Source: a virus. Taken from it: a stretch of 64,000 nucleotides of DNA. The stretch is taken from positions 1 through 64,000 of the IMG/VR virus record IMGVR_UViG_3300017917_002795. The stretch is one strand, 5' to 3'. The first letter of the stretch is position 1. Each line of letters opens with the position of its first letter. Made by a program: the position numbers and the translations under genes. Of the stretch, positions 1 to 17,683 are shown in pieces. The notes under the pieces are model-generated. The model saw only the letters and a list, made by a program, of their open reading frames with translations. It had not been told where the DNA came from and did no database searches.

Positions 1-100
1 AGACGCTAACTCGCAGATTGATAAAGTGGTGATACGGCAGAAGTTCGTATTCAATCGTATAAGAACCATCACTATACAGGTTCGAATCCTGTCCTGACTA
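1..100 (+). ncRNA. tRNA-like RNA copy 1 (5' end cut by window)
   Basis: D-arm end AGACGC, T-arm ACAGG-TTCGAAT-CCTGT and acceptor 3' strand CCTGACT-A, as in three other copies. Middle stem AGTGGTG/CATCACT; no canonical anticodon arm. Confidence 0.7.
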
Positions 101-114
101 CAAAAATAAAGAAT

Positions 115-504
115 ATGAAACGATTAATTTTAACGGTTGCATTGTTTTGCACCACAACATTAAATGCTCAATTAAAATATCTACCTGGATTTGAAAAGGG
201 CTCGTACGGATACACCAAAACAGTGTTTACTGAAGAAGAAGCCATTCGTTTATACAACTACGTATTGGACAAAAACGGTGTAGATACAGTGAATGGTGAC
301 TACCGTAGAGGAAAGAATCCAGTCATCTTTGATTTTTTCAAATTTAAGCCAGACGCAAAAAACGTTAACATTGGAGCAATCATTAACTATAACGGTGTAT
401 ATGATGTACTGTTCACAACAATTAAAGATGAAGATACTGTCTTGTTTACGGTAAAAGATGAGAACGGTAAATTACTTGATTTGATATACGAAAAGCCAGA
501 ATAG
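115..504 (+). CDS. Hypothetical exported protein
   Basis: Signal-peptide-like N-terminus MKRLILTVALFCTTTLNAQ; lies between two tRNA-like RNAs. Confidence 0.75.
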   Translation: MKRLILTVALFCTTTLNAQLKYLPGFEKGSYGYTKTVFTEEEAIRLYNYVLDKNGVDTVNGDYRRGKNPVIFDFFKFKPDAKNVNIGAIINYNGVYDVLFTTIKDEDTVLFTVKDENGKLLDLIYEKPE

Positions 505-512
505 ATTAAAAT

Positions 513-621
513 AGTCAGGTGGCGAAATTGGTTAGACGCTATTGAATGAGAAAAACGGTTAAGATTAACATGGATGTAAATGAGGAAGTTAATCATGCAG
601 GTTCGAATCCTGTCCTGACTA
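513..621 (+). ncRNA. tRNA-like RNA copy 2
   Basis: Acceptor AGTCAGG/CCTGACT, Leu/Ser-type D-arm GCG-AAATTGGTTAGA-CGC, T-loop TTCGAAT, long extra stem GATTAAC/GTTAATC. Confidence 0.75.
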
Positions 622-679
622 CGCAAAAAACACGGATGGAGTTTCCTTACCTCAACAGAGATGGGTTTTAGAAGTCCAG

Positions 680-687
680 ATATTTAT
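680..687 (+). promoter_or_regulatory. Putative late promoter ATATTTAT
   Basis: The same 8-mer precedes about 20 late or structural units in the window. Confidence 0.6.
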
Positions 688-1069
688 TCATGATAGTACC
701 TACCACGCTTTGGATTTGGGTGTCCCAGGTCGGCGTACCAGGGTAGGTCTTTTGCCCCACCGTTAGGCGCGCTAACGGAACCCTCTAGTTCTCCGGTTCT
801 AGAGTATAGTTCTTTACCTTTGGTACGGAATTTATAAAGGTTTTGTGCATTGAACCCGTAATCAATGTAACGCCACCCTGTGAATAGAATTCATAGGCTA
901 AGTACCATCGGGCATACCGTTAGATCTGCTCACTTAGATGGTCTTTTTTGATATCGGGAAATTGGACCTGCTTTATGGGTGCACGACGGTGCCTTCATGA
1001 ACAACCTTATAACCGGTATCGCCCCTTAGTAAGCCTGCTTGATCAACAGACACTGCTAAGGGTTTTTTT
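687..1069 (+). ncRNA. Large structured ncRNA candidate A
   Basis: No ORF of 60 aa or more, GC-enriched, at least 7 stems closed by TTCATGA/TCATGAA; late motif upstream, terminator downstream. Confidence 0.65.
1023..1069 (+). terminator. Intrinsic terminator
   Basis: CCCTTAGT...GCTAAGGG followed by T7. Confidence 0.6.
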
Positions 1070-1092
1070 GTGTTCTGATATTTATTAATGAA

Positions 1093-1245
1093 ATGAAAAA
1101 ACAAGTTAAACTCAAAACGGAACAGACTGCATTAATCAATGTGTTGACCAAGCTTCAGGAAAAATATGAACAGGTTCAATCCAAAACACTGAATGATGCT
1201 ATTACACATTTGCATGCAGCAATCCGAAGTTTAAACTGTGTTTAG
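1093..1245 (+). CDS. Small hypothetical protein (50 aa, MKKQVKLK...)
   Basis: Read by hand; follows late motif at 1078; its TAG overlaps the first base of tRNA-Ser. Confidence 0.6.
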   Translation: MKKQVKLKTEQTALINVLTKLQEKYEQVQSKTLNDAITHLHAAIRSLNCV

Positions 1246-1331
1246 GAGGCTTGGCAGAGCGGTCGAATGCGATGGTCTTGAAAACCATTTTACGGGAAAC
1301 TGTAACCGGGGTTCGAATCCCTGAGCCTCCG
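1245..1331 (+). tRNA. tRNA-Ser(TGA)
   Basis: Acceptor GGAGGCT/AGCCTCC, anticodon arm ATGGT-CTTGAAA-ACCAT, long variable arm, TTCGAAT T-loop, discriminator G; CCA not encoded. Confidence 0.95.
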
Positions 1332-1346
1332 CTAAATGAAAGGAAA

Positions 1347-1535
1347 ATGATGAATCATGTTACTAGTATTGCTGTGATATTGTTTTTAGGTGCAATGGGA
1401 GTATTATGGCCTACATGGTTGCGAGATGGATATCTTGATACCTGGTACTTGAAGATTGCAACATTTGTAGCAGTTTATGGTGGATTTGTAGGCAATTTGG
1501 TATGGTACATACAATATGTTCGACGCAATCGTTGA
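1347..1535 (+). CDS. Small membrane protein
   Basis: Two hydrophobic helices; start moved downstream of the tRNA. Confidence 0.7.
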   Translation: MMNHVTSIAVILFLGAMGVLWPTWLRDGYLDTWYLKIATFVAVYGGFVGNLVWYIQYVRRNR

Positions 1536-1929
1536 TATGATATGGTGGATACTCGCCGGCGTGTTGTGTGTAATTGCTGCAGCAGTTTGCGAAGGTGTTA
1601 TGGACACATTGCAGTTTCATTATATGCGATCAGTGTTTCATCAGTTCTCAAACAAAACGTTTTGGGATCCAACTATATCATGGAGAAACAAATACCGGGA
1701 CGGAGATCCTGCAGCAGGTCCACGCTTTCCAGGTTCCATTACCGTCTTCGTAGGCCTTACTGATGCATGGCACTTATTTAAACTGCTCCGCAATGTGTTT
1801 GTGTGTTTAGCGGTTTTCCTGCTGCTTAGTGCATTTATTTCTGTGTATTGGTCTATGTTATATGTTGTGTTGTATCGTGTTGTATACGGCTTTATTTTCA
1901 CCGTATCATACCGGAGGTTTTACGAATAA
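1516..1929 (+). CDS. Membrane protein (TDAWHLFK motif)
   Basis: Several hydrophobic segments; start uncertain (1516 or 1537). Confidence 0.75.
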   Translation: MFDAIVDMIWWILAGVLCVIAAAVCEGVMDTLQFHYMRSVFHQFSNKTFWDPTISWRNKYRDGDPAAGPRFPGSITVFVGLTDAWHLFKLLRNVFVCLAVFLLLSAFISVYWSMLYVVLYRVVYGFIFTVSYRRFYE

Positions 1930-1934
1930 TAAGA

Positions 1935-1965
1935 TTGGATATATTTAAAACATTTCATATATTAA
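1935..1965 (+). promoter_or_regulatory. Bacteroidota-type promoter, early/middle class TTGG-N19-TATATTAA
   Basis: Same geometry recurs near 2870, 6104, 7377, 9824, 11637, 14817, 31947, 32845, 54287. Confidence 0.65.
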
Positions 1966-1968
1966 GTT

Positions 1969-2688
1969 ATGAAACATAAGATTACCGTTATATCAGATAC
2001 ACACGGAAAGCATGCACAGATTACACAAGACCTACCAGGTGGAGACGTATTGATCCATGCCGGTGATTTCATGAATTCAGGTTACTATAAAACAGAAGCC
2101 ATTGAGTTCTGGAATTGGTTTGATGCAATTCCAAATTATGACACAAAGGTATTCATTGCCGGGAATCATGACCGCATAATGCAGGATGATCCAACATGGG
2201 CTACTGGATGCTTAACAGCATACAAAACAATAGAGTATCTGGCAGATGCAGAGTTAGGCGTATATCATGATGACTTGAACGGAGAGGGCGCAGAAGATAA
2301 CATTCACATATACGGTTCTCCATGGCAACCTGAATTTCATAATTGGGCCTTTAATCTTCCGCGGAATGGAGATGCCTTAAAGGCACGATGGGAAGCAATA
2401 CCTGCACAAACAGACATCTTAGTAACTCATGGACCTGCATTTGGATTCCTAGATATCCCAGGCTTTGGAGCTCCGCGCAACGTAGGCTGTGAATTGCTTA
2501 GATATCGCATTGATGTGTTACGTCCCAAGATTCACGTATGCGGGCATATACATGGCGGGTATGGTTATTATTTTAATGGACATACTCATTTCTTTAATGC
2601 AGCCGTGCTCAATGAGCGATACTCTTATTCAAATGTGCCGCAAACTTTTGTGTGGGACAATGTTACAAATGAAATAGAATGGATATAA
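1969..2688 (+). CDS. Calcineurin-like metallophosphoesterase
   Basis: Motifs ISDTH, HAGD, GNHD, THGP, GHIH. Confidence 0.92.
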   Translation: MKHKITVISDTHGKHAQITQDLPGGDVLIHAGDFMNSGYYKTEAIEFWNWFDAIPNYDTKVFIAGNHDRIMQDDPTWATGCLTAYKTIEYLADAELGVYHDDLNGEGAEDNIHIYGSPWQPEFHNWAFNLPRNGDALKARWEAIPAQTDILVTHGPAFGFLDIPGFGAPRNVGCELLRYRIDVLRPKIHVCGHIHGGYGYYFNGHTHFFNAAVLNERYSYSNVPQTFVWDNVTNEIEWI

Positions 2689-2695
2689 GGAACAT

Positions 2696-2905
2696 ATGAA
2701 ACAAGACTTGCCCGTACGATTTGCAAATGAAGGTTATTATGCTAATACGATTGCAATTGATGTATCTAAACTAACCGACATCATGAAATTCAGAGATGAA
2801 GTATTTGGCACCATTGATGGTATTCGTATTGCAATACGACGCGATGATTACGAAAATGCACTTCAAAATTTGGAAACGCCAAAAAATTTTCATATATTAA
2901 AATAA
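2696..2905 (+). CDS. Hypothetical protein
   Basis: Tightly packed + strand ORF. Confidence 0.7.
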   Translation: MKQDLPVRFANEGYYANTIAIDVSKLTDIMKFRDEVFGTIDGIRIAIRRDDYENALQNLETPKNFHILK

Positions 2906-2912
2906 AAGAAAT

Positions 2913-3137
2913 ATGTCGAAGGTAACTCTAGAATTTAATCCAATCGAAGATAGAGACGATATGGAGTCGGCTATCAATGGTTGGAAGTGGAAAATGTTAG
3001 TTTGGGATCTAGATCAGCATTTGCGATCTGAATTAAAATACAATGAAGAAGTTACCGGTGAGGTTTATGAAGCTTTGGAAAAGATTCGAGAACATCTTCA
3101 TGAATTACGAAAAGAAAGCGGTTTAACTTTAGACTAA
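2913..3137 (+). CDS. Hypothetical protein
   Basis: Promoter upstream; operon packing. Confidence 0.75.
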   Translation: MSKVTLEFNPIEDRDDMESAINGWKWKMLVWDLDQHLRSELKYNEEVTGEVYEALEKIREHLHELRKESGLTLD

Positions 3138-3140
3138 GTT

Positions 3141-3428
3141 ATGGCAAAGAGATTAACAAGAGAAGAAAAACAAAAACAAGCAGTAGTTGATTTGATCAAT
3201 GAAATGTTTCGTATTGCGGGTCATGATGCAACATATGATGATATGATATGTCGTGAAGATCAATGGTTTAATGAATATGAAATGACTGAAGAGCAATATG
3301 ATGAATGGAAAGCTTGGGGTAAAAAATACTTAATGAAAAACTTAGGTATGTATGCTGCACGTGCTGAAAAAGAAATGGCTTGGGCTGGATTGCAGTGGGG
3401 TTTAAAAATAAATTATGATGCAGAATAA
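3141..3428 (+). CDS. Hypothetical protein
   Basis: Operon packing. Confidence 0.75.
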   Translation: MAKRLTREEKQKQAVVDLINEMFRIAGHDATYDDMICREDQWFNEYEMTEEQYDEWKAWGKKYLMKNLGMYAARAEKEMAWAGLQWGLKINYDAE

Positions 3429-3726
3429 ACCAGCTTTAGAAATACTGTTAGGTGCATTGTCAGATGCCGAATGGATGCAACTTAAACAGTTACGTGAATC
3501 AAAGAACGCATTTCGTAATTCTGATATCGTTGTTGCTCGTAAAACGAGTGCCGTACAGTTTGCTAATTGGATCCTTAAACACGCCGTTAATCCAGGATAT
3601 GATGAGAATGGATGGGCTTGTTGGGTATTAGCAGATGGCACTGACAGAGTCTTTACATCAACGGAACTGTATGAAGCATATATAAACGGATTATTTGACC
3701 CAGAAGAAGATGACGAAGAAAATTAA
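3415..3726 (+). CDS. Hypothetical protein
   Basis: Operon packing. Confidence 0.7.
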   Translation: MMQNKPALEILLGALSDAEWMQLKQLRESKNAFRNSDIVVARKTSAVQFANWILKHAVNPGYDENGWACWVLADGTDRVFTSTELYEAYINGLFDPEEDDEEN

Positions 3727-4039
3727 ACAAATCAAACTACCTGTAGAGTTAGCAGACTTAGCAGAAGTAATCGCACAACCTGCTCCTAACTGGAAACTTG
3801 TTAGAGAACGAGACGGTTTAACTAAACAATCAACGGGTGTTACATGGATTGAATTCGGAGAAGATGGATACTATAAAGACCGACACGATGAACCAGCTGT
3901 TGGCAGATCTTTGTTAATGTCTCCATTCTCGCAGTTCTTTACATGGCAGACAACTGTCGTTACTGAAATTGTAGAGCAAAGGCCAGACTATGTTAAGTTT
4001 CATACCGGTAACAGTACTTATGAATTGTTTAAGATATGA
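3710..4039 (+). CDS. Hypothetical protein
   Basis: ATG at 3710; ATGA overlap with next gene. Confidence 0.75.
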   Translation: MTKKIKQIKLPVELADLAEVIAQPAPNWKLVRERDGLTKQSTGVTWIEFGEDGYYKDRHDEPAVGRSLLMSPFSQFFTWQTTVVTEIVEQRPDYVKFHTGNSTYELFKI

Positions 4040-4320
4040 AAATAGGTTTTGATACAACTCAATTGATAGGCAAACGTTTCCGGTACCGAAGCAAGTATGG
4101 AGTATCCGAATGGACTGATACGGTTTCTGATGTGGTAGCAATGCACGGTATCGAATTTGATAAACCTTGGCCATGGTTTAAAATATCTGCAGATGGTGAG
4201 AAATGTGATGCAGAACATACAAAAATCATTGGATACCATTATCGTCTGCATGTACGAGCAACCAGAACAAAACATATATATGAATTTGAAAATTGTATTT
4301 TTTTAAATGATGAAGAATAA
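4036..4320 (+). CDS. Hypothetical protein
   Basis: Operon packing. Confidence 0.7.
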   Translation: MKIGFDTTQLIGKRFRYRSKYGVSEWTDTVSDVVAMHGIEFDKPWPWFKISADGEKCDAEHTKIIGYHYRLHVRATRTKHIYEFENCIFLNDEE

Positions 4321-4891
4321 TTTATTAGACCGTATACAGCGTTGGTGGCGATTTGAAGGACGTCACATACCAAGAAACATCCGTGTTGGCATCCGTAACT
4401 TGTGGCGGTGGGCTCCAACCATATGGCGAGACCGAGATTGGGATGGTCATTACATCTACGAGCTCCTTCGAGTGAAACTAGAACACCAGGCTGCGTATAT
4501 TGGAGATCGAGATATTCGGGTGGAGTCAAAACGTGATGCTGAAAGGATGCGGCTTGTTGCTCGTCTCATAAAACTTCAACAAGATGAAACTTACGGAATG
4601 GAGTATATGGATTATCATGATACTAAATATGAGTTTGTTCCAACCGATGCATCGGAGAATTGGTATATTATGGAGGAAACTGAAATTTCTGAATGTTTTG
4701 ATGCATACTTTGCCAAGTATCCGAGACAATATAAACGAGTGATATCAGGAGAAATCAACAGATACCGCAGACCGCCAGAGAATAATGATAAGAAGCTTAT
4801 TGCAATGGAGATTGCTCATGAAAATCAATCACGTTGTCAGCGTTTAATATTTGATATCATGCACGACCACATTGAACGGTGGTGGGACTAA
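4307..4891 (+). CDS. Hypothetical phage protein (DRDWD...WWD motifs)
   Basis: 194-aa ORF. Confidence 0.8.
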   Translation: MMKNNLLDRIQRWWRFEGRHIPRNIRVGIRNLWRWAPTIWRDRDWDGHYIYELLRVKLEHQAAYIGDRDIRVESKRDAERMRLVARLIKLQQDETYGMEYMDYHDTKYEFVPTDASENWYIMEETEISECFDAYFAKYPRQYKRVISGEINRYRRPPENNDKKLIAMEIAHENQSRCQRLIFDIMHDHIERWWD

Positions 4892-4981
4892 AGAAACACA
4901 CAAAAACAACATAAAAAAAGGAAAATTATGGAAATTACATCATTTGTTTTAAGTTAATATATATTTATATAAAAGGAATAT

Positions 4982-5659
4982 ATGTCTAATGTTATATGTG
5001 TATATAAAATCATTTCGCCAAATGGTAATACATATATAGGTAGTACCATCAATCTTAAACGAAGATTAGCTGAACATAAAAAACATCCAGGTTGTCGTAG
5101 ATTACATTTTTCTATAGAAAAATATGGATGGGAAAATCATATATGTGAAGTTATTCAACATTGCAATATTGACGAATTGCGTGATTTAGAATCAAAATAT
5201 AAACAAATGTTTATCGATGAATATGGATGGGAGAAAGCATTGTTTTTTCAGATCGATGATAGGAGTTGTTATATCGCTCCAGAGGATTTTTCAGAAAAGA
5301 TGCGTAGACTTGCATTAGAAAATTGGAAGAAAAACCCATCGATGGGGTTTACGGGTAAAAAACATACTAAAAAAAGTAATATACAACGTGTTAATACTAA
5401 ACGTTTAAATGGTACTGATAAAGTTTCTGCAGAAACCCGGAAAAAAATATCTCAAGGTAATTTAGGTAAACGGATGAGCGATGACACGAAACAAAAAATA
5501 TCTCAATCTAAATCTGGAGTTAAATTATCTGCAGAACATGTAGCAGCACTGCGCGCAGCAAAAAGACCACAAAATGTAATTACATGTCCTCATTGTCAAA
5601 CGTCTGGTGGAAATGCAATGCATCGTTGGCATTTTAATAATTGTAAAAATAAAAATTAA
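4982..5659 (+). CDS. Free-standing GIY-YIG homing endonuclease with NUMOD3-like repeats and C-terminal Zn finger
   Basis: VYKI...YIGST...RRLAEH; repeats ETRKKIS / DTKQKIS / HTKKS; CPHC...HFNNC. Confidence 0.9.
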   Translation: MSNVICVYKIISPNGNTYIGSTINLKRRLAEHKKHPGCRRLHFSIEKYGWENHICEVIQHCNIDELRDLESKYKQMFIDEYGWEKALFFQIDDRSCYIAPEDFSEKMRRLALENWKKNPSMGFTGKKHTKKSNIQRVNTKRLNGTDKVSAETRKKISQGNLGKRMSDDTKQKISQSKSGVKLSAEHVAALRAAKRPQNVITCPHCQTSGGNAMHRWHFNNCKNKN

Positions 5660-5674
5660 AAAAAGGAGTTACTT

Positions 5675-6076
5675 ATGAATTTATTTGTATTAGGAATTTT
5701 ATCAACCATTGCTACCATAATGGTAGCAGTGATCGTTGTAGGTATTGTTAAGATATTGAAACTAACAAAACAGTTAAAGGATTTAGAAACAACGTTTTTT
5801 CAATCTCGCGGAGATTTGTATAGAAATATCGAAGAACGCATTCATCCAATTTGGAAACAGTTTGAAGATACAGGGCGAGACGTTACAATGGTTGAACAGA
5901 CATTACGTAATCAAATTGAAGAATCCAAACGCCAAACTGAAGATGCTGCAACGGCTATGTGTCATGCAGATAGAAGATACACAGATTCGCGTATCGACAA
6001 ACTCATTGACACTTATTTTGAACACGTAGGTGCCAAGAACCCATCAAAAAACAATAAAGAACTTATTAACGGATAA
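5675..6076 (+). CDS. Membrane-anchored coiled-coil protein
   Basis: N-terminal transmembrane helix then heptad-rich region. Confidence 0.75.
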   Translation: MNLFVLGILSTIATIMVAVIVVGIVKILKLTKQLKDLETTFFQSRGDLYRNIEERIHPIWKQFEDTGRDVTMVEQTLRNQIEESKRQTEDAATAMCHADRRYTDSRIDKLIDTYFEHVGAKNPSKNNKELING

Positions 6077-6149
6077 AAAATACAGTTTTTGTGTGTGAAG
6101 AGCTTGGATTCCAGGCTCTTTTTTGCTATTATATAGAAAATAAAGAGCT

Positions 6150-6380
6150 ATGACACTTAAGAAGAAAATTAGATCAAGAATGCTGCTCTCATTGAGAAGC
6201 ATAGGTTTATTGTGTAAACGACCTGTAGAGACGACACACAGGATCCGAATATCTCAAACACGTAATCCAGATGGTAGCATTACACATCATAAAAACCTAA
6301 CCAAGCAACCATTGGTAGAAGGCAGCACAGTTGAAACCGAATTGCATATATGGCAAGAAATTCACAAACAAAACAAATAA
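6150..6380 (+). CDS. Hypothetical protein
   Basis: Promoter at 6104-6134. Confidence 0.65.
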   Translation: MTLKKKIRSRMLLSLRSIGLLCKRPVETTHRIRISQTRNPDGSITHHKNLTKQPLVEGSTVETELHIWQEIHKQNK

Positions 6381-6381
6381 G

Positions 6382-6675
6382 ATGAACCAAGAAAAATTTG
6401 CCGAATGGCTACAATCACAAGGGCTTAATTCATATGATGAAGCCGTAGAACAATTCCTGAAACAAGTATCCGAGAACATTGATCCTCGAGACTACATGAC
6501 ACCCACTCAACGTGAGATTGCAGACCTACCTTTTGCAGAACTTGAAACGGAATATCAATTGGTACAGGCAAAGGCCAGCAGTCGAAGTGCTGCACAAAGA
6601 AAATTTATCACTCAACGCTATGAATATGAAATCTCTAGGCCAACAACCACTGAGCAAGATGATGCCAATGCTTAA
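6382..6675 (+). CDS. Hypothetical protein
   Basis: ATG at 6382 right after upstream stop. Confidence 0.7.
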   Translation: MNQEKFAEWLQSQGLNSYDEAVEQFLKQVSENIDPRDYMTPTQREIADLPFAELETEYQLVQAKASSRSAAQRKFITQRYEYEISRPTTTEQDDANA

Positions 6676-6768
6676 GATGATTGCTGCGGCTCATGGACTC
6701 AAACTTCATGTAGCTCGTGAATTCCGAATGGCTCGTTTACTTCTAGCTAACCAATACAGTAATGCCCT

Positions 6769-6951
6769 ATGAACAATAAAACTTACATTATATCAGTCTT
6801 GATTGGCATCGTAATAGGATGCTGCATTGGATACTGGCTGTCCCGACTCTATGCACAGACTCATCTAAGCAACGAAGCATTGCATCAGGAGAATCGAGAA
6901 CTCCGAAGAATTATATTTGAACAACACCAAAGATACTACGAAATCCAATGA
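6769..6951 (+). CDS. Small membrane protein
   Basis: N-terminal transmembrane helix. Confidence 0.65.
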   Translation: MNNKTYIISVLIGIVIGCCIGYWLSRLYAQTHLSNEALHQENRELRRIIFEQHQRYYEIQ

Positions 6952-7154
6952 GTGCAGTACATAAACCCAACTTAAACTTTGATAATGAAAAGCAAACTCA
7001 TATTCCATATCGGGAAGTTGTAAAAGCTAGTATGCGATCTGCATATGAAGATTTCATGCGACCCAAAAAGGTAACAACACTTAAAAAAGAAAAACGTGTA
7101 AAGGACACTAGCATCAATCCAGATACTAAGAATTTTCAAAAATGGTTCAAATAA
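6948..7154 (+). CDS. Hypothetical protein
   Basis: ATGA overlap. Confidence 0.7.
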   Translation: MSAVHKPNLNFDNEKQTHIPYREVVKASMRSAYEDFMRPKKVTTLKKEKRVKDTSINPDTKNFQKWFK

Positions 7155-7160
7155 AACGGT

Positions 7161-7394: not shown

Positions 7395-7413
7395 TTTCTT
7401 ATATTAAAGAAAA

Positions 7414-7815: not shown

Positions 7816-7821
7816 AAGGTT

Positions 7822-9569: not shown

Positions 9570-9580
9570 AAACAAACAAA

Positions 9581-9841: not shown

Positions 9842-9867
9842 ATTCTTATATTAAAGAAAAAAAGAGA

Positions 9868-10092: not shown

Positions 10093-10112
10093 TTGTAAAT
10101 TTATAAAGTAAT

Positions 10113-10418: not shown

Positions 10419-10419
10419 G

Positions 10420-10746
10420 ATGCCGGATTGGAAAAAACTACATGAAGAACTTGATGATGCATTGAATTCAATGACTGATGCTAAATGGCAGGAATTTCAC
10501 ATCAAATCAAAAGCAGATGCCTTAACGGAACGCTTCTATTACACACTGCCTAACAATGGATCTTTTACCGGACCGAACAATGTCAATGCGCGTTGGACGG
10601 AAGCACGACAATGTGCCATAGTATGCGTAAAGGAGATGTTAGATGAGGTAGAATGCATACAGTCACTCAATGAGTTATCCGCGGACTATGTGACGTATTG
10701 GACAGAAGTATTAACGGAATTGAATACATTAAACGAAACAGAATGA
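10420..10746 (+). CDS. Hypothetical protein, KA..L/A.QCA/YW..V..E paralog 1
   Basis: Shares motifs with 10743..10982. Confidence 0.75.
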   Translation: MPDWKKLHEELDDALNSMTDAKWQEFHIKSKADALTERFYYTLPNNGSFTGPNNVNARWTEARQCAIVCVKEMLDEVECIQSLNELSADYVTYWTEVLTELNTLNETE

Positions 10747-10982
10747 CACCAAAAGAAAAGGCAGAAGCGTTAGTAGATTCTTTCATGAATATAAAATCCA
10801 TGAAGCTATCAGATTATTCCATGATATATCATCCAACAGCCAAACAATGTGCTTTGATTGCAGTTGCGGAGATACTACTAACATTAAACAAAGACATCAG
10901 AGATTTAGATGTTGTAGGCAATGTGTTATTGGATTTAATTGAATACTGGCAACAAGTCGAACAAGAAATAGAAAACCTTTAA
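10743..10982 (+). CDS. Hypothetical protein, MTPKEKA/AKQCALIAV/YWQQV paralog 2
   Basis: ATGA-coupled start at 10743. Confidence 0.8.
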   Translation: MTPKEKAEALVDSFMNIKSMKLSDYSMIYHPTAKQCALIAVAEILLTLNKDIRDLDVVGNVLLDLIEYWQQVEQEIENL

Positions 10983-10985
10983 GAT

Positions 10986-11396
10986 ATGATGACAGAACAA
11001 GAGATGAACGAGTTCCTGCAATCCATCGGAGGATTGAAAAACGGATACTACTCAGACCGGGAACCTATAACCGATGCAGGATTTCTTTGCGTAGGCCTAG
11101 GCTGGTATCCATTGATCAAAGACCTGATTGAAGATCTCATTGAATTGGGTTGGGATCGAGAAGTGTGCCAAGTCAAAGAAAAGTTTGGAGGCCTTCGATT
11201 CTACATCAATGCCGCATCAGATGAAATGTATGATCGCATCAGCCAAGCAGAAAAGGAGAGCTATGAGACTTGCGAAGACACAGGACAACCAGGTAAGCTC
11301 CGTACGGATCTAGGTTGGTGGGTAACATTATGTGATGCCGAATACGAAAAACGATTAGCAGAAAAAATACGTAAACAAATAGAACAAAAACAATGA
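10986..11396 (+). CDS. Conserved phage protein (QVKEKFGGLRFY motif)
   Basis: Recognisable KEKFGxLRFY motif; function unknown. Confidence 0.8.
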   Translation: MMTEQEMNEFLQSIGGLKNGYYSDREPITDAGFLCVGLGWYPLIKDLIEDLIELGWDREVCQVKEKFGGLRFYINAASDEMYDRISQAEKESYETCEDTGQPGKLRTDLGWWVTLCDAEYEKRLAEKIRKQIEQKQ

Positions 11397-11632
11397 GTAA
11401 ACCAATTTTCATAGTAAGATTTCCAGCAGAGATTGTAATGGAAAATCGAGAACGTTTCGAAGAAGCTGCTGAGGCAATTCAACGCAAACTAAGTGACTAT
11501 CATGTACTAGTCGTAATGGAATCTGGATTAGAAGCCACCCAGTTTGAATGCTTCAATGCAGTCAATGCAACGGATAAAGACATTGAAGAACTCCGGGATA
11601 TGTGCTTAGATGCTATAAAAAACATCAAGTAA
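11393..11632 (+). CDS. Hypothetical protein
   Basis: ATGA overlap. Confidence 0.75.
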   Translation: MSKPIFIVRFPAEIVMENRERFEEAAEAIQRKLSDYHVLVVMESGLEATQFECFNAVNATDKDIEELRDMCLDAIKNIK

Positions 11633-11684
11633 CTGGTTGGATTCCTAACACGGTTTTCTTATATTATAGAAAAATAAAAAAGCT

Positions 11685-12056
11685 ATGAAAATAAGAATCA
11701 ATCAAATTGAATGTCGACACAGTCAAGGCCGTTATGAGATAGTTCGTTGGCAACCTAATTCATACTACAACAAGCAAGAAGAATATCTAGCTGATGGTTG
11801 GGAACGTACTGGAGGTTTTTATAGAAAAGATAACGTGAGCGTATCAGAAGGATGCTTTGTGAATCCAGAAACATGTTATACTGTTGCAACCTTACAGTAT
11901 CGTGCCGGAGAAGGTGACTGTGATATGCATACAGTAGGATCTCGCTTGTTGCAACTAGATCGGGCAGATCGCGAAGACTTCTTTGCAGTGTATGAATTGG
12001 CAGAAGACCGGATTCGTGAAGAAGCCCGGAACCAAGAAAAAGAATTGAACTTTTAA
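11685..12056 (+). CDS. Hypothetical protein
   Basis: Promoter at 11637-11667. Confidence 0.75.
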   Translation: MKIRINQIECRHSQGRYEIVRWQPNSYYNKQEEYLADGWERTGGFYRKDNVSVSEGCFVNPETCYTVATLQYRAGEGDCDMHTVGSRLLQLDRADREDFFAVYELAEDRIREEARNQEKELNF

Positions 12057-12067
12057 CGCAGAATAGA

Positions 12068-12346
12068 ATGGGTAAAACAAGAGAAAAATTATTGAATGCA
12101 AATAAGTATTGTCATATCTATGTAGATGATGACGGGATAACTAATTATCATGATACTGAAACAAATGAGACTTATAGGGTTATACCTGACACAGGAGCAT
12201 TAGGTTTTTATTTGGAGTATTTTAAAGATGGTGTATTAAAAGCAAGAAATTCATTTGAATTTAAAGAACTTAAAATACTTGCAAATCTTACTGGGAGTAA
12301 TTATTTACTAAACAATTTAATTGGTGGAGAACTTAAATCAGAATAG
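12068..12346 (+). CDS. Hypothetical protein
   Basis: Operon packing. Confidence 0.7.
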   Translation: MGKTREKLLNANKYCHIYVDDDGITNYHDTETNETYRVIPDTGALGFYLEYFKDGVLKARNSFEFKELKILANLTGSNYLLNNLIGGELKSE

Positions 12347-12347
12347 A

Positions 12348-12563
12348 ATGGATCAAACAGCAGTAGAATGGTTTGTTGGGCAAATGTTTTTGCAAGGTTA
12401 TCTTAATGATAGCCCAATGACCATTGTTAACATCAACCATTTTGTTCGACAAGCCAAATCCATGGAAACCAAACAACGTCAAGCAGACACCAATCACGGC
12501 TATGCACAAGGTTATGATGATGCTGCTCAAGGCAAGGAACCAATGCAACCAGAAATGCTTTAA
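12348..12563 (+). CDS. Hypothetical protein (QTAVEW...AKSME type)
   Basis: ATG at 12348. Confidence 0.7.
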   Translation: MDQTAVEWFVGQMFLQGYLNDSPMTIVNINHFVRQAKSMETKQRQADTNHGYAQGYDDAAQGKEPMQPEML

Positions 12564-12574
12564 CTCAGAACACC

Positions 12575-13186
12575 ATGAAAAGGCCTTTACTAACAACATC
12601 AACAGATTTTCATGAAGCGTTGTCTGCACATTATGGAATGTATGGACGACTAACACATCCGCGGGTAGAAGACATCTTACAACGTGCAATTGATATTGGT
12701 GCATTATATAATATATTTCATGGCAAAGTGCATGTTGATGTAGAACGGGTTACACATCAAGACAACGTGATACAGATCCCGGAACAGAACCTGCAAGGTG
12801 CAGCAACAGTGTATTTGGTTGATTCAGCAACATGGATAATGTTCTTGCAGAGTAATGTTGATCGCAGTGAAGCGTATGCTTGGCAGATTCCGGTCATGGA
12901 TTATTATCCAGCTTATCCAACAACATATCGCATAACACCGGTCAACCCAACGTTGTATCAAGAAGGGTGGCACATTGATGCTGATGCTAAGGGTGCATTA
13001 GGTTCTTATATAAGAAACCATACGGATCAACTAATTACGATATCAAGGAACTCTAAGTTAGCAGAGCCTCCGAAATTTCAAGTTACGCAACGGCTAGCAA
13101 CAGCAACATATCAGCAGTATCAGTTACCTCAAATAGATACTAAGAATGTCATTGATGAATTTATGAAATTTTGGGAAACAAATTAA
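12575..13186 (+). CDS. Hypothetical protein
   Basis: 203-aa ORF. Confidence 0.75.
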   Translation: MKRPLLTTSTDFHEALSAHYGMYGRLTHPRVEDILQRAIDIGALYNIFHGKVHVDVERVTHQDNVIQIPEQNLQGAATVYLVDSATWIMFLQSNVDRSEAYAWQIPVMDYYPAYPTTYRITPVNPTLYQEGWHIDADAKGALGSYIRNHTDQLITISRNSKLAEPPKFQVTQRLATATYQQYQLPQIDTKNVIDEFMKFWETN

Positions 13187-13196
13187 TATTGAAATC

Positions 13197-13586
13197 ATGA
13201 ACAAAATGGTACCATGGCTACTTAATTGGACGGCATTTGTTACAAGAAACACGCATGCGGTTATTGAAGGTGTATCATATGAAGATGGACCGATATGGTT
13301 CGAAGCAATGTGGGAGTTATGGCTGAATAATTCGGATCATGGACAACAACTAAAACAAAATAAAATGACAAGAACAACAACGGTATTTGAAGGCACGGCT
13401 CAATGGAGTCGTACGGCCTTTCTGCGTCTAGAAAATGATAAAGTCATATTTGATTGTTCAGACTCAGAATACGGCCCAATTGAGTTTCCTTTACAACAAC
13501 TCAAAGACGCAATACGGTATCATGATGAGCCAGAAGATTTTTCGGATTGGGATGCAACCTTATTGGACGGTTTAGAAGATTTATAA
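13197..13586 (+). CDS. Hypothetical protein
   Basis: Operon packing. Confidence 0.7.
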   Translation: MNKMVPWLLNWTAFVTRNTHAVIEGVSYEDGPIWFEAMWELWLNNSDHGQQLKQNKMTRTTTVFEGTAQWSRTAFLRLENDKVIFDCSDSEYGPIEFPLQQLKDAIRYHDEPEDFSDWDATLLDGLEDL

Positions 13587-14050
13587 TGCAACGGATAACT
13601 GAAGAAGAAGCTGCTGCATACATTGCGTGTGCCGAAGACTTTACGGAAGCTGCAGCAGCATACTACACCGTAACCCAAGATGGCACAGGATGGGACTTGA
13701 TAACATATTATACAGCAAAACGTCGTGGCATATATCATGGCAAGCAAGGTGATGAAATGGTGTATGTTTTATCCAATCCGGCCATGCCAGGACTTTACAA
13801 AATAGGCCACACTAAAAGTGATGCTGTCAACCGAGCCACACAGATATCACGTAGCACCGGAGTCCCACAGGATTTCCAAGTAGAATGGACACTGCGTTGC
13901 TTCAAAGCGGAACGCATAGAGCGAGAGACACATCGTCGTTTTAAAACACAAAGAGTGAACCGTCGCAAAGAATTCTTCCGCGCGGATATAGAAGACATCA
14001 AAATGGCCATCCAGCAGATTGCAGCCAAGTATGATGAGCTCCCAAACTAA
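13586..14050 (+). CDS. T5orf172/MUG113-type GIY-YIG domain protein
   Basis: VYVLSNPAMPGLYKIGHT...R...E..H..F...KEFF. Confidence 0.85.
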   Translation: MQRITEEEAAAYIACAEDFTEAAAAYYTVTQDGTGWDLITYYTAKRRGIYHGKQGDEMVYVLSNPAMPGLYKIGHTKSDAVNRATQISRSTGVPQDFQVEWTLRCFKAERIERETHRRFKTQRVNRRKEFFRADIEDIKMAIQQIAAKYDELPN

Positions 14051-14432
14051 TTAAAATCTACGCACTGTTACGGGTACTGCACACAAAGACACAGTATAAG
14101 CACACTAATAAAGCAAAGCACAATAAGCACAATAAGCAGTGAAATGTGATGATGGTTACTACCAGGGTGTCCCGGTGTCTAGAGTCTAGTAAGATTATGT
14201 GGTGTGGGTATCAGAGCAGCAGAATGCTAGTATTATTTTTAGACACTGTGGTGCTGTGGTGCCAGCAAAAGGAGTCAAGTAGATGGGTGACTGGTAGTAT
14301 ACAGATTTTCCTACCTGGATTCTGTATTTTTATATACCATAGTCTCTTTATCGCCAAGCATCTGGATATCTTCCCTATCCCGCCAGGTTAAACCGCATTA
14401 AAAGTGCTGTATTAGAGCGCCATGTTCTGTGA

Positions 14433-14797
14433 TTTTTAGAGCATTTTTAGAAGAATCCTGGTGTTATTTTTAGACTCGTTTTAGATGCATACGCTGCGCG
14501 TATATTCGGATGATTCCTAGTTTTAGTGCGATCACTAGCTATACGGAGTAAACCAGGACCTGCACTTTTGAGCCGTATACGGTGGTTTTGGTGGTTTTGC
14601 TAGCTATACGGAGTACTCTGATCTGGCTATTTTTAGGGGAGTTTTAGCAGAATACGTTGTGATTTTTAGAATTCCGGCTATTTTTAGACTCGTTTTAGCA
14701 GAATCTGGTGCTTATTTTTAGGCAAGTTTTAGTCCTATTTTTAGCAGAATCGCCGTTTTAGGCGTGGTTTCTTTTGGTTTGCTAGCTATACGGAGTA
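14433..14797. repeat. Non-coding repeat region: about 14 TTTTAG, many spaced 11-12 bp, plus three CTAGCTATACGGAGTA
   Basis: 16-mers at 14535, 14600 and 14782; TTTTAGCAGAAT x3; TTTTTAGACTCGTTTTAG x2. Confidence 0.85.
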
Positions 14798-14865
14798 AAC
14801 GTTTTCGGCGTTCCGGTTGGATTCTACCAGGAGATTTCATAATATATAGATGTAAATAAGACGAT

Positions 14866-14943
14866 ATGATCATAACCGGCATTGTATTTGGAGTAGCAGT
14901 AGCATTGGTGCTTCATTACCTGGATAATAAATTTAGATTTTAA
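14866..14943 (+). CDS. 25-aa hydrophobic peptide MIITGIVFGVAVALVLHYLDNKFRF
   Basis: Directly after promoter 14817-14847 and leader AAATAAGACGAT. Confidence 0.55.
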   Translation: MIITGIVFGVAVALVLHYLDNKFRF

Positions 14944-14945
14944 AC

Positions 14946-15129
14946 GAAGGGATCCGTGCCAGTGCAGGACCTTCACTCAATAGATGGGATCACGACCACA
15001 GGATGCTGCCGGCACTCCGAACACTGTGGTCCCATCAGGATATTTTCACAGAGCCTAGTTTCTCTCTCTTATTTCTAGGCCACCAAGCACCCGGGTTTCT
15101 CTCTCTTATTTCCCGGGTGCTTTTCTTTT
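14946..15129 (+). ncRNA. Structured RNA with twin hairpins carrying identical loops (candidate antisense regulator)
   Basis: Four hairpins; the last two share loop TTTCTCTCTCTTATTT; final stem is followed by a T-rich tail. Confidence 0.65.
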
Positions 15130-15232
15130 ATACACGAAAAATTGTGAATAACTTTTTTTAAACTTTTTCGCGAAAAGATTAGGATCGCATTATTTTTTTG
15201 CTTATCTTTAAGTATATAAAAAAATAAGAGAT

Positions 15233-15388
15233 ATGTATAGTTTGAATTGTGATTATTACACAGCAGAGTTTCCGACGCTAGGAGACCTTATCGCCCACAT
15301 TATGATTTCCGGGATGGATCCGAATTATGAGATCACTCGCAATGGCAAAGGCACGGGAGAAATGGCAATAGACTTTGTTGAATTTTAA
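15233..15388 (+). CDS. Small hypothetical protein (51 aa, MYSLNCDYY...)
   Basis: Read by hand behind cassette promoter and leader. Confidence 0.7.
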   Translation: MYSLNCDYYTAEFPTLGDLIAHIMISGMDPNYEITRNGKGTGEMAIDFVEF

Positions 15389-15467
15389 TTAAAAAAAGTT
15401 TGCAAAAGATTTGGCACATTGAAAAAAAATGCTTATCTTTATATTATTAATTTAAAACCAAAGAACA

Positions 15468-15752
15468 ATGTCACAGTCATTAGGAGTAAGAAATTTTAGT
15501 AAAAAAGGTTTAGCTGCAATGTGTATATATAAGGATTTATATGCTGCAGCAATCCAGAAGCGTCAGGCAAAAGGTTTAAGTGGTGTTGAATCTTTACAGC
15601 CAATTGTAACAGAAGCAAAGCGCTTAGCAGAAACATCTGAATTATTAGCATTAAGCCGCATCCAATTGGAAGCAAAGGCAACGGTGGTTAAAGGATGCAA
15701 TTCTTCTTGGGGAAGTTATTCAACATTTTCCAGCAGTCAATTTGCAGAATAA
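15468..15752 (+). CDS. Hypothetical pre-early protein
   Basis: Cassette promoter. Confidence 0.75.
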   Translation: MSQSLGVRNFSKKGLAAMCIYKDLYAAAIQKRQAKGLSGVESLQPIVTEAKRLAETSELLALSRIQLEAKATVVKGCNSSWGSYSTFSSSQFAE

Positions 15753-15769
15753 ACATAAAAATAAGGGAC

Positions 15770-15970
15770 ATGAAATTTAACGTAGGAGATGAAGTAGTAA
15801 TCATGAATTCGGATTGGAAAAATGCTAACTATTCCGGGGACACAGGAATTATCACGGAAATAGATCCTAGAGATGGCGATTGCCGAGTTCAGGTTGAAGG
15901 ACGCGCGAAAATAGGGAATTGGTGTCCGCAATCCGATTTAAAATTAATTCACGATAAAAAACAAGCATAA
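15770..15970 (+). CDS. Small KOW/SH3-like beta-barrel protein
   Basis: MKFNVGDEVVI...GDTGIITEID pattern. Confidence 0.7.
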   Translation: MKFNVGDEVVIMNSDWKNANYSGDTGIITEIDPRDGDCRVQVEGRAKIGNWCPQSDLKLIHDKKQA

Positions 15971-16206
15971 TGAGTTTAACTAAAAGATTATTAGCAGGAG
16001 GCTGGGAAGCAGTCAACTTAAAAGCCGGAAACGTTAAAGTAGGAGATAACATTGTGAATCGCAATGACCTATTTGGCACTCTCATTAAGATTACCGGCGG
16101 CAAATATGTAGTTCAGTTTGATATTGACTGGGATCGTCCCGAAGATGCACCGACAAAGTTCACAGCAGACGAGTTTGAAAGCTTTTTCCTTGTAGATAAA
16201 AGATAA
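15970..16206 (+). CDS. Small SH3-like protein
   Basis: VKVGDNIV...GTLIKI...YVVQFD. Confidence 0.65.
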   Translation: MSLTKRLLAGGWEAVNLKAGNVKVGDNIVNRNDLFGTLIKITGGKYVVQFDIDWDRPEDAPTKFTADEFESFFLVDKR

Positions 16207-16288
16207 ACATTTTTTGAAAAAAGTTTCAAAAAGATTAGGATCCGAACAAAATTATTATTATCTTTATATAAATAAAAAAATAAGAGAT

Positions 16289-16504
16289 ATGAAAAAAGAA
16301 AGAGAATTTAAAGTTGACATTACATTAGCCGCAGATTTTGCATTATTTTTGGAAACCTTGCTTGAAGCTGAGTTTAATGAGGAATTTGATGCTGAGGAGC
16401 CGGTAACAGACACATTCCTGGATTACTATATCCCAAACGGGATCGTGCCGGCGCAAGATTTAATTAATGCATTATTAGCATCTGGCATTGTAAAAAAAGT
16501 TTAA
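16289..16504 (+). CDS. Acidic hypothetical pre-early protein
   Basis: ATG after AAATAAGAGAT leader. Confidence 0.75.
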   Translation: MKKEREFKVDITLAADFALFLETLLEAEFNEEFDAEEPVTDTFLDYYIPNGIVPAQDLINALLASGIVKKV

Positions 16505-16577
16505 AAAAGTTTGCAAAAGATTAGGATCGCATTGATTTTTTCATTAAATTTATATTATTAATTAAAAAATAAGAGAT

Positions 16578-16829
16578 ATGTCATTTTCAGAAGCAAACAA
16601 AAAGGTTCACAAAGTAGAAGCGCAGTGGCACTATGAGACCATGATAAGTTACGGGTTTACTCCGATTGATAAGGAGGGAATAGGATTCGTTAGAAGTTAT
16701 AGGTATTCTAAAGGGGATAGAATAATCACGTGCAACACAGGGGCATCTGCAGATTATTGGAAGGATGAGACCACAAGGGCTGGAGGATTCTGGGCTTCAC
16801 TTAAGGAATATGTATCTAAAATAGTTTAA
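16578..16829 (+). CDS. Hypothetical pre-early protein
   Basis: Cassette promoter and leader. Confidence 0.75.
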   Translation: MSFSEANKKVHKVEAQWHYETMISYGFTPIDKEGIGFVRSYRYSKGDRIITCNTGASADYWKDETTRAGGFWASLKEYVSKIV

Positions 16830-16902
16830 AAAAAGTTCCAAAAAGATTTGGCAGATTGAAAAATAATCATTAAATTTATAGTATAATTAAAAAAAAGAGA
16901 AA

Positions 16903-17094
16903 ATGGCAAAAGGAAAAAGAAATTCAGGATTTTTTAAGCAGGAAGCAGTAGCAGGACGTTTTATGGCAGATGCTCGCAAACCGCAAGAGGTAAATGCAAT
17001 TGTTAAACAAGCAATGGCACAAGCAGATCGTAATGCGGTATACAGAGCCGAGCAAGAAGCTAAGGCGAAATTGAATCCTCGCTTCGTTAGATAA
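16903..17094 (+). CDS. Basic hypothetical pre-early protein
   Basis: Cassette promoter. Confidence 0.75.
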   Translation: MAKGKRNSGFFKQEAVAGRFMADARKPQEVNAIVKQAMAQADRNAVYRAEQEAKAKLNPRFVR

Positions 17095-17184
17095 TGTGGT
17101 GAACAACGCAGCACAGGAGTTGTACCTTTACGGTTTTGAAATGTGCTTATTAAATTAATAAAAATGAAATTAATAAAAATCAAA

Positions 17185-17391
17185 ATGTCAGAAAAAACAA
17201 AAAACACTTCCGGAGGTATAGGAATAGGAATGATTCTCTTTCTTATCTTCATGACTCTAAAATTAACCGGAAACATTGATTGGAGCTGGTGGTGGATAAC
17301 TGCACCGATTTGGATGCCAGCTGGATTAATTGCGGTGATGTTCATGATTGCTGGGATCGTTTTCTTGCGTGAAGTAAAAAGACGCAAATAA
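17185..17391 (+). CDS. Small membrane protein (LKLTGNIDWSWWWITAPIW family)
   Basis: Motif typical of phage transmembrane proteins; start uncertain. Confidence 0.75.
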   Translation: MSEKTKNTSGGIGIGMILFLIFMTLKLTGNIDWSWWWITAPIWMPAGLIAVMFMIAGIVFLREVKRRK

Positions 17392-17399
17392 TAAAAATA

Positions 17400-17477
17400 A
17401 GTCAGGTAGTGTAATTGGTAACACCCTAGCCCTCCTCTAAAGGGTAGAAGATGCAGGTTCGAATCCTGTCCTGACTA
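17400..17477 (+). tRNA. Atypical tRNA / tRNA-like RNA copy 3 (extended anticodon arm; TCT or CTA)
   Basis: AGTCAGG/CCTGACT, D-arm GTGT/ACAC, arm CTAGCCCT-CCTCTAA-AGGGTAG, T-arm GCAGG-TTCGAAT-CCTGT. Confidence 0.6.
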
Positions 17478-17491
17478 CAAAAACAAAATAT

Positions 17492-17575
17492 ATGAATACT
17501 TGTATTTATTGTAACATAGAAATTATTGATGAAGCTGAATTATGCGACGAGTGTAGTGCAGGAGAAGATATTTAA
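17492..17575 (+). CDS. 27-aa CxxC-CxxC micro-protein MNTCIYCNIEIIDEAELCDECSAGEDI
   Basis: Read by hand between two tRNA-like RNAs; A-rich leader. Confidence 0.55.
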   Translation: MNTCIYCNIEIIDEAELCDECSAGEDI

Positions 17576-17583
17576 AAAATTAT

Positions 17584-17683
17584 AGTCAGGTGGCGGAATT
17601 GGTAGACGCAATAAGTTGTTAAATCTTAACCTTAGAATACAATAGGTATTACTTATTCACAGGTTCGAATCCTGTCCTGACTA
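17584..17683 (+). ncRNA. tRNA-like RNA copy 4
   Basis: Same acceptor, D-arm and T-arm; anticodon arm replaced by AATAAGT/ACTTATT enclosing GTTAA/TTAAC and AATAC/GTATT. Confidence 0.75.

Follow-up and report, generated by a model that had tools for sequence, protein, structure and literature searches.

We analysed the first 64 kb (the window, 64,000 nucleotides) of the linear 140,594-bp IMG/VR virus record IMGVR_UViG_3300017917_002795 (here G000, from an uncultured lake-type phage and estimated to be 83% complete), in which four tRNA-shaped elements, numbered 1 to 4 by position (Table 1), carry differing sequences where a tRNA has its anticodon and variable arms. We found that these four elements belong to a large phage-only family of tRNA-Leu-derived RNAs, in which a constant frame encloses a middle that differs from copy to copy, and that elements 1, 2 and 4 have no usable anticodon arm. 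The middles are conserved as individual types and exchanged between phages, and the frame bears tRNA-like processing signatures. The explanation that we favour, with moderate confidence, is that the constant frame is a carrier for processing and stability and that the middle is an exchangeable functional RNA.

A family with one frame and many middles

All four elements end in the same 25-mer, CAGGTTCGAATCCTGTCCTGACTAC (77–101, 598–622, 17454–17478 and 17660–17684, all on the + strand), and the three complete ones open with AGTCAGGT (at 513, 17400 and 17584). The original prediction had named this identical 3′ end and common 5′ start, and exact copies of both were located. The 25-mer occurs four times in the window and not once in 100 shuffles, and the whole 140,594-bp record holds no copies beyond those four. 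Because the window begins at contig base 1, the 5′ truncation of element 1 is an assembly artefact and not a natural one. The 5′ part that is missing can be read from a full-length relative (L230:20–140, minus strand, 121 nt; L numbers denote related loci), which has the standard acceptor and D arm, and the surviving part of the D arm in element 1 fits the Leu type.

The wider search that had been proposed along with the prediction showed that at least 119 IMG/VR contigs contain the 25-mer, the matches listed including viral contigs with as many as 6 copies. From these matches we extracted 140 elements, 136 of them distinct and 54–182 nt long, all of which join a common 5′ part (acceptor strand and D arm) and a common 3′ part to wildly different middles. 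Because this sample had been chosen by the 25-mer itself, we took a second, motif-independent sample of 80 loci, fetched with a phosphoesterase gene (window 1969–2688) as the protein anchor. Twenty-eight of the 80 loci carry family elements, 36 altogether, and AGTCAGG/CCTGACT is by far the commonest acceptor among the tRNA-shaped matches there. Its variants in these loci are single transitions that keep a G·U pair; a double compensatory change was never seen.

Among 185,579 species genomes, 17 contain the 25-mer, all on contigs of metagenome-assembled genomes and mostly from Bacteroidota (mostly Chitinophagia, Sediminibacterium, Flavobacterium and Saprospirales), and none of 50,697 cultured phage records does. 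This distribution indicates that the elements are phage-borne and are neither host tRNAs nor attachment (att) sites; we rejected a host tRNA or att-site origin on the absence of the 25-mer from the isolate genomes of that scan. The hosts of the family phages are probably freshwater Bacteroidota. Neither half of the frame is printed in 8.4 million full texts (open-access articles and bioRxiv), and within the same scope we found no description of the family, the literature offering instead the stable RNAs of T4 and T5 and general surveys of tRNA-like RNAs. One paper reports tRNA-like candidates from IMG/VR (PMC10690425).

The four window copies share the family acceptor (AGUCAGG/CCUGACU), the T arm (RCAGGUUCGAAUCCUGU), A73 and C74, and between position 26 and U48 each carries a non-tRNA insert of the kind that varies between copies and is exchanged between phages. 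The Leu-type D arm (a 3-bp stem and a loop with AAUUGGUAGA) is present in elements 4 and 2, element 3 being the exception with a 4-bp class-I-type D arm, as in a minority of the family. Bases 5–26 of element 4, which include the D arm, are identical (22/22) to tRNA-Leu of E. coli in 5426/5426 complete genomes; the D arm of element 2 departs from element 4 and this E. coli type by one substitution and one extra U in the D loop. Among the 136 distinct elements from the matches listed, and at positions not fixed by the search, U8 is found in 129, G9 in 124 and U48 in 114, a purine at 49 pairs with U65 in 134, and the strict Leu-type D-arm pattern fits 53.

The borders of the elements resemble those of tRNA genes. 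Bacterial RNase P prefers a U at position −1, and this base precedes 179 of 216 elements, compared with a T background of 29%. In the motif-independent sample, A73 is found in 35/36 elements and C74 in 36/36, and position 75 is never C. The same trailer follows 322 ordinary phage tRNAs in loci L005–L227, with C74 in 93% and C75 in only ~1%, usually as N73-C-A-A, so that the first C of CCA is nearly always encoded and the full CCA is not. Family elements, moreover, lie inside phage tRNA clusters. Taken together, U(−1), A73, C74, the shared trailer and the position in tRNA clusters support, indirectly, a normal tRNA maturation route in which RNase P acts at the 5′ end and the 3′ end is trimmed and completed to CCA. 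The recognition by RNase P and the CCA-adding enzyme that had been anticipated from the acceptor and T arm thus gains indirect support.

The frame's acceptor is also found outside the family. A pair of tRNA-Ile(UAU) genes, L068:4958–5031 and L089:3659–3732, have exactly the same D arm, anticodon arm and variable loop, and their T loops differ by one or two bases; L068 has the family acceptor, AGTCAGG/CTTGACT, and L089 has GCTCTCG/CGGGAGT. Here, exchange seems to have affected only the acceptor stem, and the L068 gene indicates that the family acceptor module is also joined to real tRNA bodies.

Conservation and exchange of the middles

Clustering of 141 middles gave 117 types, 101 of which are singletons. 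Where a type recurs, pairs of middles are 82–100% identical, whereas the identity of their 150-nt flanks is no higher than random and no common open reading frame (ORF) at E ≤ 1e-6 is found in the several kb around them. Compensatory changes were found within middle types. Replacement is equally evident: at one orthologous locus in 8 close relatives, where the flanks share 85–95% identity and the neighbouring proteins, in the pairs compared, as much as 100%, there are six unrelated middles of 90, 93, 97, 110, 133 and 160 nt. The D arm changes along with the middle at this locus, leaving only ~10 constant nucleotides on the 5′ side.

The loci of the window elements can be followed in the same manner. 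The first 80 nt (623–702) of the conserved block behind element 2 are 70–86% identical in the loci of 8 relatives, which carry 7 other middles in elements of 63–144 nt. The middle of element 2 itself is identical at 58/58 positions in its sole relative, L229:5883–5991, which lies at another genome position in the closest relative phage (neighbouring proteins 72–79% identical to those of the window); all 4 differences between the two elements fall within the frame. For elements 3 and 4, we used as the synteny anchor a 246-aa gene directly downstream of element 4 (17785–18525), which matches phage RNA polymerase sigma factor families (phrog_351, E 6e-45). Upstream of this sigma-like gene, a single element with yet a different middle is present in two relatives, and no element in five others.

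One middle type has also been found outside the frame. The type shared by L077 and L088 occurs frame-free in L011:8457–8532 (minus strand), as a 76-nt module directly after a tRNA-like gene with the acceptor AGTCGAG/CTCGGCT; the module has no Rfam family match. Because this copy stands without a frame, a middle can be an RNA in its own right. In L114:2457–2523 and L166:6391–6457, a known middle type is followed by the 3′ half of the frame, and the 5′ acceptor strand and D arm are missing; these half elements are apparently decayed or recombined copies. The longer members of the family (135 to 182 nt) also show inserts in the D loop.

In the window, all the stems that had been named for the middles exist in the sequence. 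The middle of element 1 has the nested stems AGTGGTG/CATCACT and ATACGG/TTCGTAT, and it differs from the middle of its L230 relative by one indel and ~6 substitutions, including a G·U to U·G flip in the inner stem. In element 2, a 23-nt A-rich single strand precedes a 7-bp hairpin with an 18-nt loop, the stem of which, GATTAAC/GTTAATC, has a pair probability of 0.65. Element 3 has a 7-bp bulged anticodon-like stem with the loop CCUCUAA, which is the Arg-UCU loop with C33, and its relative L109:4133–4210 shows one compensatory D-stem pair (U-A to C-G). The three-way junction that had been predicted for element 4 is only one of two near-equal folds, the other being two hairpins, as its closing stem AATAAGT/ACTTATT has a pair probability of ~0.2 and lies 0.3 kcal/mol above the minimum free energy. 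No relative of element 4 was found by an 18-mer scan, and blastn against the 50,697 phage records matched only its D arm, to two tRNA-Leu genes. Of the compensatory changes that the prediction would have led one to expect in relatives, there are thus one D-stem pair for element 3 and, for element 1, the one G·U to U·G flip, with none for element 2, the middle of which is invariant, or for element 4. The folding energies of the four elements do not differ significantly from those of shuffles (z = −1.1, −2.0, −1.2 and +0.3).

Two minor points concern elements 2 and 3. A 41-codon ORF with an ATG start (546–671) begins where element 2 is single-stranded, crosses the T arm and 3′ end of the element and extends into the next spacer; it is probably a chance product of AT-rich sequence. 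We also considered element 3 as an amber suppressor with the loop shifted to CUA; this was rejected, as the shifted register allows a stem of just 3 bp for the window copy, and fewer pairs for L109.

These results bear on whether the elements are degenerate or intron-bearing tRNAs, with middles that are mutational debris or splicable inserts. The Rfam tRNA model (RF00005, threshold 29) does score the three complete copies above threshold (50.5 bits at 17400, 46.7 at 17584 and 37.4 at 513), and the elements have the 7-bp acceptor stem, the GTTCGAAT-type T loop and the D arm with G18G19 of a tRNA. The model's alignment forces 16, 30 and 39 nt into the anticodon loop for elements 3, 4 and 2, respectively, and we found no standard anticodon arm (5-bp stem, 7-nt loop, U33, purine 37 and normal distance). 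ARAGORN, which had been expected to yield pseudo or undetermined calls, left elements 1, 2 and 4 uncalled and found no tmRNA in the record, but it called element 3 (17400–17478) as Arg-TCT, its anticodon being placed abnormally, at position 37. When run without introns, it called 29 of 136 family elements, many with the anticodon AAG, ATA or AGA or with one of 2 or 4 bases; in intron mode, the anticodons and intron positions assigned to the 136 elements were arbitrary, and removal of the proposed introns did not restore a standard arm with a consistent anticodon across relatives. Rfam gave no group I intron matches around the elements, for which inserts of 20–130 nt would be too short anyway, nor did any intron, ribozyme or riboswitch family turn up in 40-odd elements and their surroundings. 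The call of element 3 and the canonical tRNA-Ile(UAU) of L068, with its near-identical acceptor and T arm, speak for this view, but the inconsistent ARAGORN results and the conservation of middles across unrelated phages make it scarcely credible that these are decayed or interrupted tRNAs, as the original prediction had already argued. Judged by sequence comparison, the middles are neither introns nor decay debris.

Possible roles of frame and middle

In the explanation that we favour, the frame (AGUCAGG/CCUGACU, U8, a Leu-type D arm with G18G19, U48, T arm, A73 and C74) would fold into the top half and elbow of a tRNA. Host RNase P would cut at +1 and the 3′ end would be trimmed and completed to CCA, so that a compact, nuclease-resistant RNA of ~80–120 nt would be released from polycistronic early phage transcripts and would accumulate. 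Such a carrier would spare the RNA from needing its own promoter and terminator, and a minority of the family RNAs would be made from a promoter of their own. The middle would replace the anticodon and variable arms (or, in some relatives, sit inside the D loop) as an autonomous folded module; it would be the payload that carries the actual function, possibly as an effector on host or rival-phage factors, and, in the manner of an accessory-gene cassette, would pass from one frame, genome position or phage to another. Charging with leucine would not be required. The population pattern, with conserved types, wholesale replacement and spread, is that of accessory genes that engage variable host factors. 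The original prediction had offered four options (processing punctuation, stable scaffolds displaying variable RNA modules, decoys for tRNA-targeting defences and recombination anchors), among which the scaffold fits best, since individual middles persist in unrelated phages, give way to others wholesale at orthologous loci and, in one case, occur frame-free. A bolder version, which we put forward tentatively and regard as doubtful, is that Bacteroidota phages run a natural tRNA scaffold system in which one leucine-tRNA frame is the common platform on which hundreds of small aptamer-like RNAs are expressed, processed and protected; these would act on host defence or takeover targets and be shuffled between phages as the RNA equivalent of anti-defence accessory genes, with the frame possibly leucylated.

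Several results weigh against a carrier with a functional payload. We found no motif shared across middles other than a modest excess of GUAA and some C-rich words, and the longest antisense matches of the four window middles in phage transcripts (10–12 nt) equal those of shuffles. No known RNA family lies inside the middles at E ≤ 0.1 in 18 loci, and there is no linked protein partner, the commonest family occurring near only 16 of ~136 loci. Comparative support for the folds of the four window copies is thin. The conservation of the acceptor-stem sequence, with transitions that keep G·U as its only changes, is unexplained by a carrier role alone; the anticodon-like loop of element 3 could indicate a tRNA-related role; and the position of copies 10–25 nt upstream of a start codon also fits punctuation of mRNAs.

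One alternative starts from the frame itself. The published leucine identity set comprises A73, A15-U48, G18G19 with a Leu D loop and the D/T-loop contacts, and E. coli tRNA-Leu stripped of its anticodon and variable arms is still charged by leucyl-tRNA synthetase (LeuRS) (PMC9976931). Since the frame holds these nucleotides, which include every determinant known for leucylation, and the minimal tRNA-Leu is still charged, leucylation is plausible and the RNAs may be charged. The elements could then be leucine-accepting, non-decoding RNAs, charged by host LeuRS and bound by EF-Tu, that titrate factors or supply leucine to a non-ribosomal acceptor, the middle serving to tune or address them. The fact that LeuRS is among the few synthetases that ignore the anticodon could even explain why this tRNA was chosen as the frame. 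However, the same tertiary nucleotides are needed for L-shape folding and for RNase P anyway, and many members, including element 3, have non-Leu D arms. We also found no L/F-transferase in G000 or in the Bacteroides thetaiotaomicron control, and leucine acceptance offers no reason for more than 100 conserved, exchangeable middle types. As the function of the family it is unlikely, if worth keeping in mind.

The arrangement of the genes raises the possibility of mRNA punctuation, in which RNase P and the 3′ enzymes would cut early polycistrons at the elements, perhaps capping the 3′ ends of upstream mRNAs, and the middle would be nearly functionless. Most elements lie between co-directional genes, a start codon follows 10–25 nt downstream in 81 of 215, and an own promoter motif was found in only 11 of 215; U(−1) and C74 are conserved, and elements 3 and 4 stand at the end of a transcription unit, directly ahead of the next promoter block (described below). 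Intrinsic terminators around the elements are at chance level. Neutral middles, however, would not keep 82–100% identity amid unrelated flanks or acquire compensatory changes, and the middle of element 2 has remained unchanged while its frame changed. Some copies stand alone: the L230 copy of the element 1 type is preceded by a terminator and then by TTTG-N19-TATATTTG, which we take to be a textbook Bacteroidota promoter, with +1 six nt later. The frame-free middle is equally hard to reconcile with punctuation, and hairpin-sized middles would suffice for it, yet elements reach 182 nt. We consider it improbable that punctuation accounts for the family.

A third possibility is that the elements are decoys or dead-end substrates for host defences that target tRNAs, such as anticodon nucleases and tRNA-modifying toxins, in which case the frame would draw the enzyme and the altered middle would make them uncuttable. 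Phage tRNAs are known to counter tRNA-cleaving defences, as described for PARIS and the T5 tRNA-Lys (PMC11464382). The hypervariable, horizontally exchanged pattern of the family resembles that of arms-race loci, and in element 3 and its relative a lengthened stem bears an Arg-UCU loop (with C33, or A32 and C33) that comes close to the loop of a true phage tRNA-Arg in L089 (CUUCUAA). By contrast, most middles, including those of elements 1, 2 and 4, are unlike any anticodon stem-loop, which is the part that known anticodon nucleases read, and no defence or counter-defence gene is linked to the elements. Thus, the decoy idea fits element 3 and not the other three, and for the family as a whole we give it only a small chance.

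The original prediction had also noted that the elements come in two pairs, each bracketing a small ORF. Both ORFs are present, but the arrangement is not conserved, as relatives have one element or none at the syntenic position. A further possibility is that the conserved halves serve mainly as recombination anchors, portable homology or endonuclease targets that move protein-coding cassettes. The block formed by an 82-aa membrane protein gene (17143–17391, phrog_1374), element 3 and the mini-ORF behind it is missing from relatives that keep one element, 5′-truncated elements exist in L114 and L166, and homing-endonuclease genes are common near elements; in T4, SegB is known to drive the inheritance of the tRNA region (PMC2330249). 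Against this, neither flanked ORF has a homologue in ~225 related loci, G000 contains no integrase or reverse transcriptase, and ~10 constant nucleotides on the 5′ side are too few for homologous exchange; nor would anchors explain the conserved tRNA tertiary nucleotides and the conserved middles. The exchanged unit is the RNA middle or the entire element, and not the flanked ORF, so exchange of gene cassettes was not borne out, and an anchoring function is very unlikely. The element pairs look incidental to clustering among small early genes.

Known stable RNAs and the genomic surroundings

The closest known designs come from other phages. RNA1 and RNA2 of phage T5 are annotated as 'tRNA-like stable RNA with unknown functions' (AY543070, 30501–30644 and 32959–33083) and, like the window elements, are encoded within a phage tRNA cluster that also holds small ORFs and homing endonucleases. 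In RNA1, a Leu-type D arm (GCCGGAATTGGTAGACGG) is followed by an insert of ~75 nt, a T arm and a closing acceptor-like stem, and RNA1 scores 24 bits with the tRNA model; the T arm of RNA2 has the same sequence as in elements 2 and 3, and RNA2 has a nested T-arm-like hairpin, as do some family members. The T5 RNAs differ in their acceptor-stem sequence and show no blastn homology beyond the D arm, and RNA1 is a single orthologous gene, preserved from end to end in 487 T5-like phage records, among which no exchange of inserts was seen. They have been seen as stable RNAs in cells, whereas the family described here consists of predictions. RNAC and RNAD of T4 (species 1 and 2) are likewise small stable RNAs encoded with phage tRNAs, and PMC3014915 presents them as stable RNAs without a known biological role. 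Compared by description only, they differ in being two fixed genes of T4-like phages rather than a multi-copy family with exchangeable middles.

Among cellular RNAs, bacterial class II tRNA-Leu resembles the family, with an identical D arm (E. coli) and with A73, A15-U48 and G18G19 kept. Unlike tRNA-Leu, the family has no 5-bp anticodon stem and U33 loop at the right distance, and hence would not decode, and its acceptor sequence occurs in no host tRNA of the 185,579 species genomes. tmRNA also combines a tRNA-like acceptor and T-arm domain with a large structured insert on the anticodon side and with anticodon-independent charging; the family, by contrast, has U3-A70 in place of G3:U70, lacks a tag reading frame and a pseudoknot series, and consists of far shorter RNAs with many copies per genome. 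The same design has been built in the laboratory. In the engineered tRNA scaffold of Ponchon and Dardel (2007), the anticodon arm was reportedly swapped for an RNA of interest, giving a chimera that was processed and protected. If our reading is right, the family is the natural, evolving counterpart of this construct, with hundreds of payloads, and would provide a natural precedent for the tRNA-scaffold trick of RNA engineering.

For decades no function has been found for the tRNA-like stable RNAs of T4 and T5, and the family repeats their design at a very large scale: a single frame occurs several times per genome and holds hundreds of inserts, each conserved in itself and passed horizontally between phages. 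Should these inserts prove to be effectors, they would make up a class of accessory phage RNAs that is still unexplored. Annotation is affected as well, since tRNA finders miss the genes of the family or assign spurious anticodons, as with the 'tRNA-Arg' of element 3, and such miscalls distort tRNA repertoires and codon-usage arguments for uncultured phages.

Table 1 Positions of the elements and adjoining features in the window
Feature	Position	Strand	Description
Element 1	1–100	+	5′ end lost at contig edge; D-arm end, 69-nt middle, T arm, 3′ acceptor strand, A73
ORF between elements 1 and 2	115–504	+	129 aa; N-terminal signal-peptide-like segment
Element 2	513–622	+	109 nt plus C74; Leu-type D arm; no anticodon arm
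Conserved block after element 2	623–760	+	Orthology anchor for the element 2 locus
tRNA-Ser(UGA)	1245–1332	+	Sole ordinary tRNA of the record (ARAGORN, whole record)
Element 3	17400–17478	+	78 nt plus C74; family acceptor and T arm
Mini-ORF between elements 3 and 4	17492–17575	+	Putative; 27 codons, CxxC...CxxC
Element 4	17584–17684	+	100 nt plus C74; 49-nt middle with two near-equal folds

The nearby tRNA-Ser(UGA) indicates that elements 1 and 2 lie in the tRNA cluster of the phage. The 129-aa ORF between them has no PHROG match, and we found no link between it and the elements. The 82-aa membrane protein gene upstream of element 3 recurs in 16 loci, in an arrangement that is not fixed. Across the family, the top neighbouring families are DUF932, a terminase C-terminal domain, T5orf172/GIY-YIG-type endonucleases and proteins without an assigned function. 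The window has two free-standing homing-endonuclease-like genes (4982–5659 and 13547–14050; phrog_314, and a homologue of a T5orf172/GIY-YIG-type domain protein), and relatives of both are among the commonest ORF families near the elements elsewhere. We found no CCA-adding enzyme or RNA ligase in G000, as available at 83% completeness, and no PF00589 tyrosine recombinase match there that would point to an integron-like array.

Further repeated or conserved sequences accompany the elements. Between 15140 and 20690, a block of ~90 nt is repeated at least ten times before small + strand genes (at about 15140, 15389, 16205, 16490, 16817, 17685, 18930, 19258, 19520 and 20596), and elements 3 and 4 stand just before one of its copies. 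The block also recurs many times in the relatives L141–L147 and resembles a promoter and leader cassette repeated through an island of early genes. Downstream of element 2, the ORF-free stretch 687–1070 is 75–88% identical in many related loci (L148, L155, L149, L048/L200, L171, L170, L176 and L199); it has no Rfam match and appears to be a large structured RNA of its own within the tRNA cluster. In L018, a tRNA cluster with three family elements contains a match to the Rfam freshwater-1 RNA (4124–4186; 70.1 bits, threshold 72).

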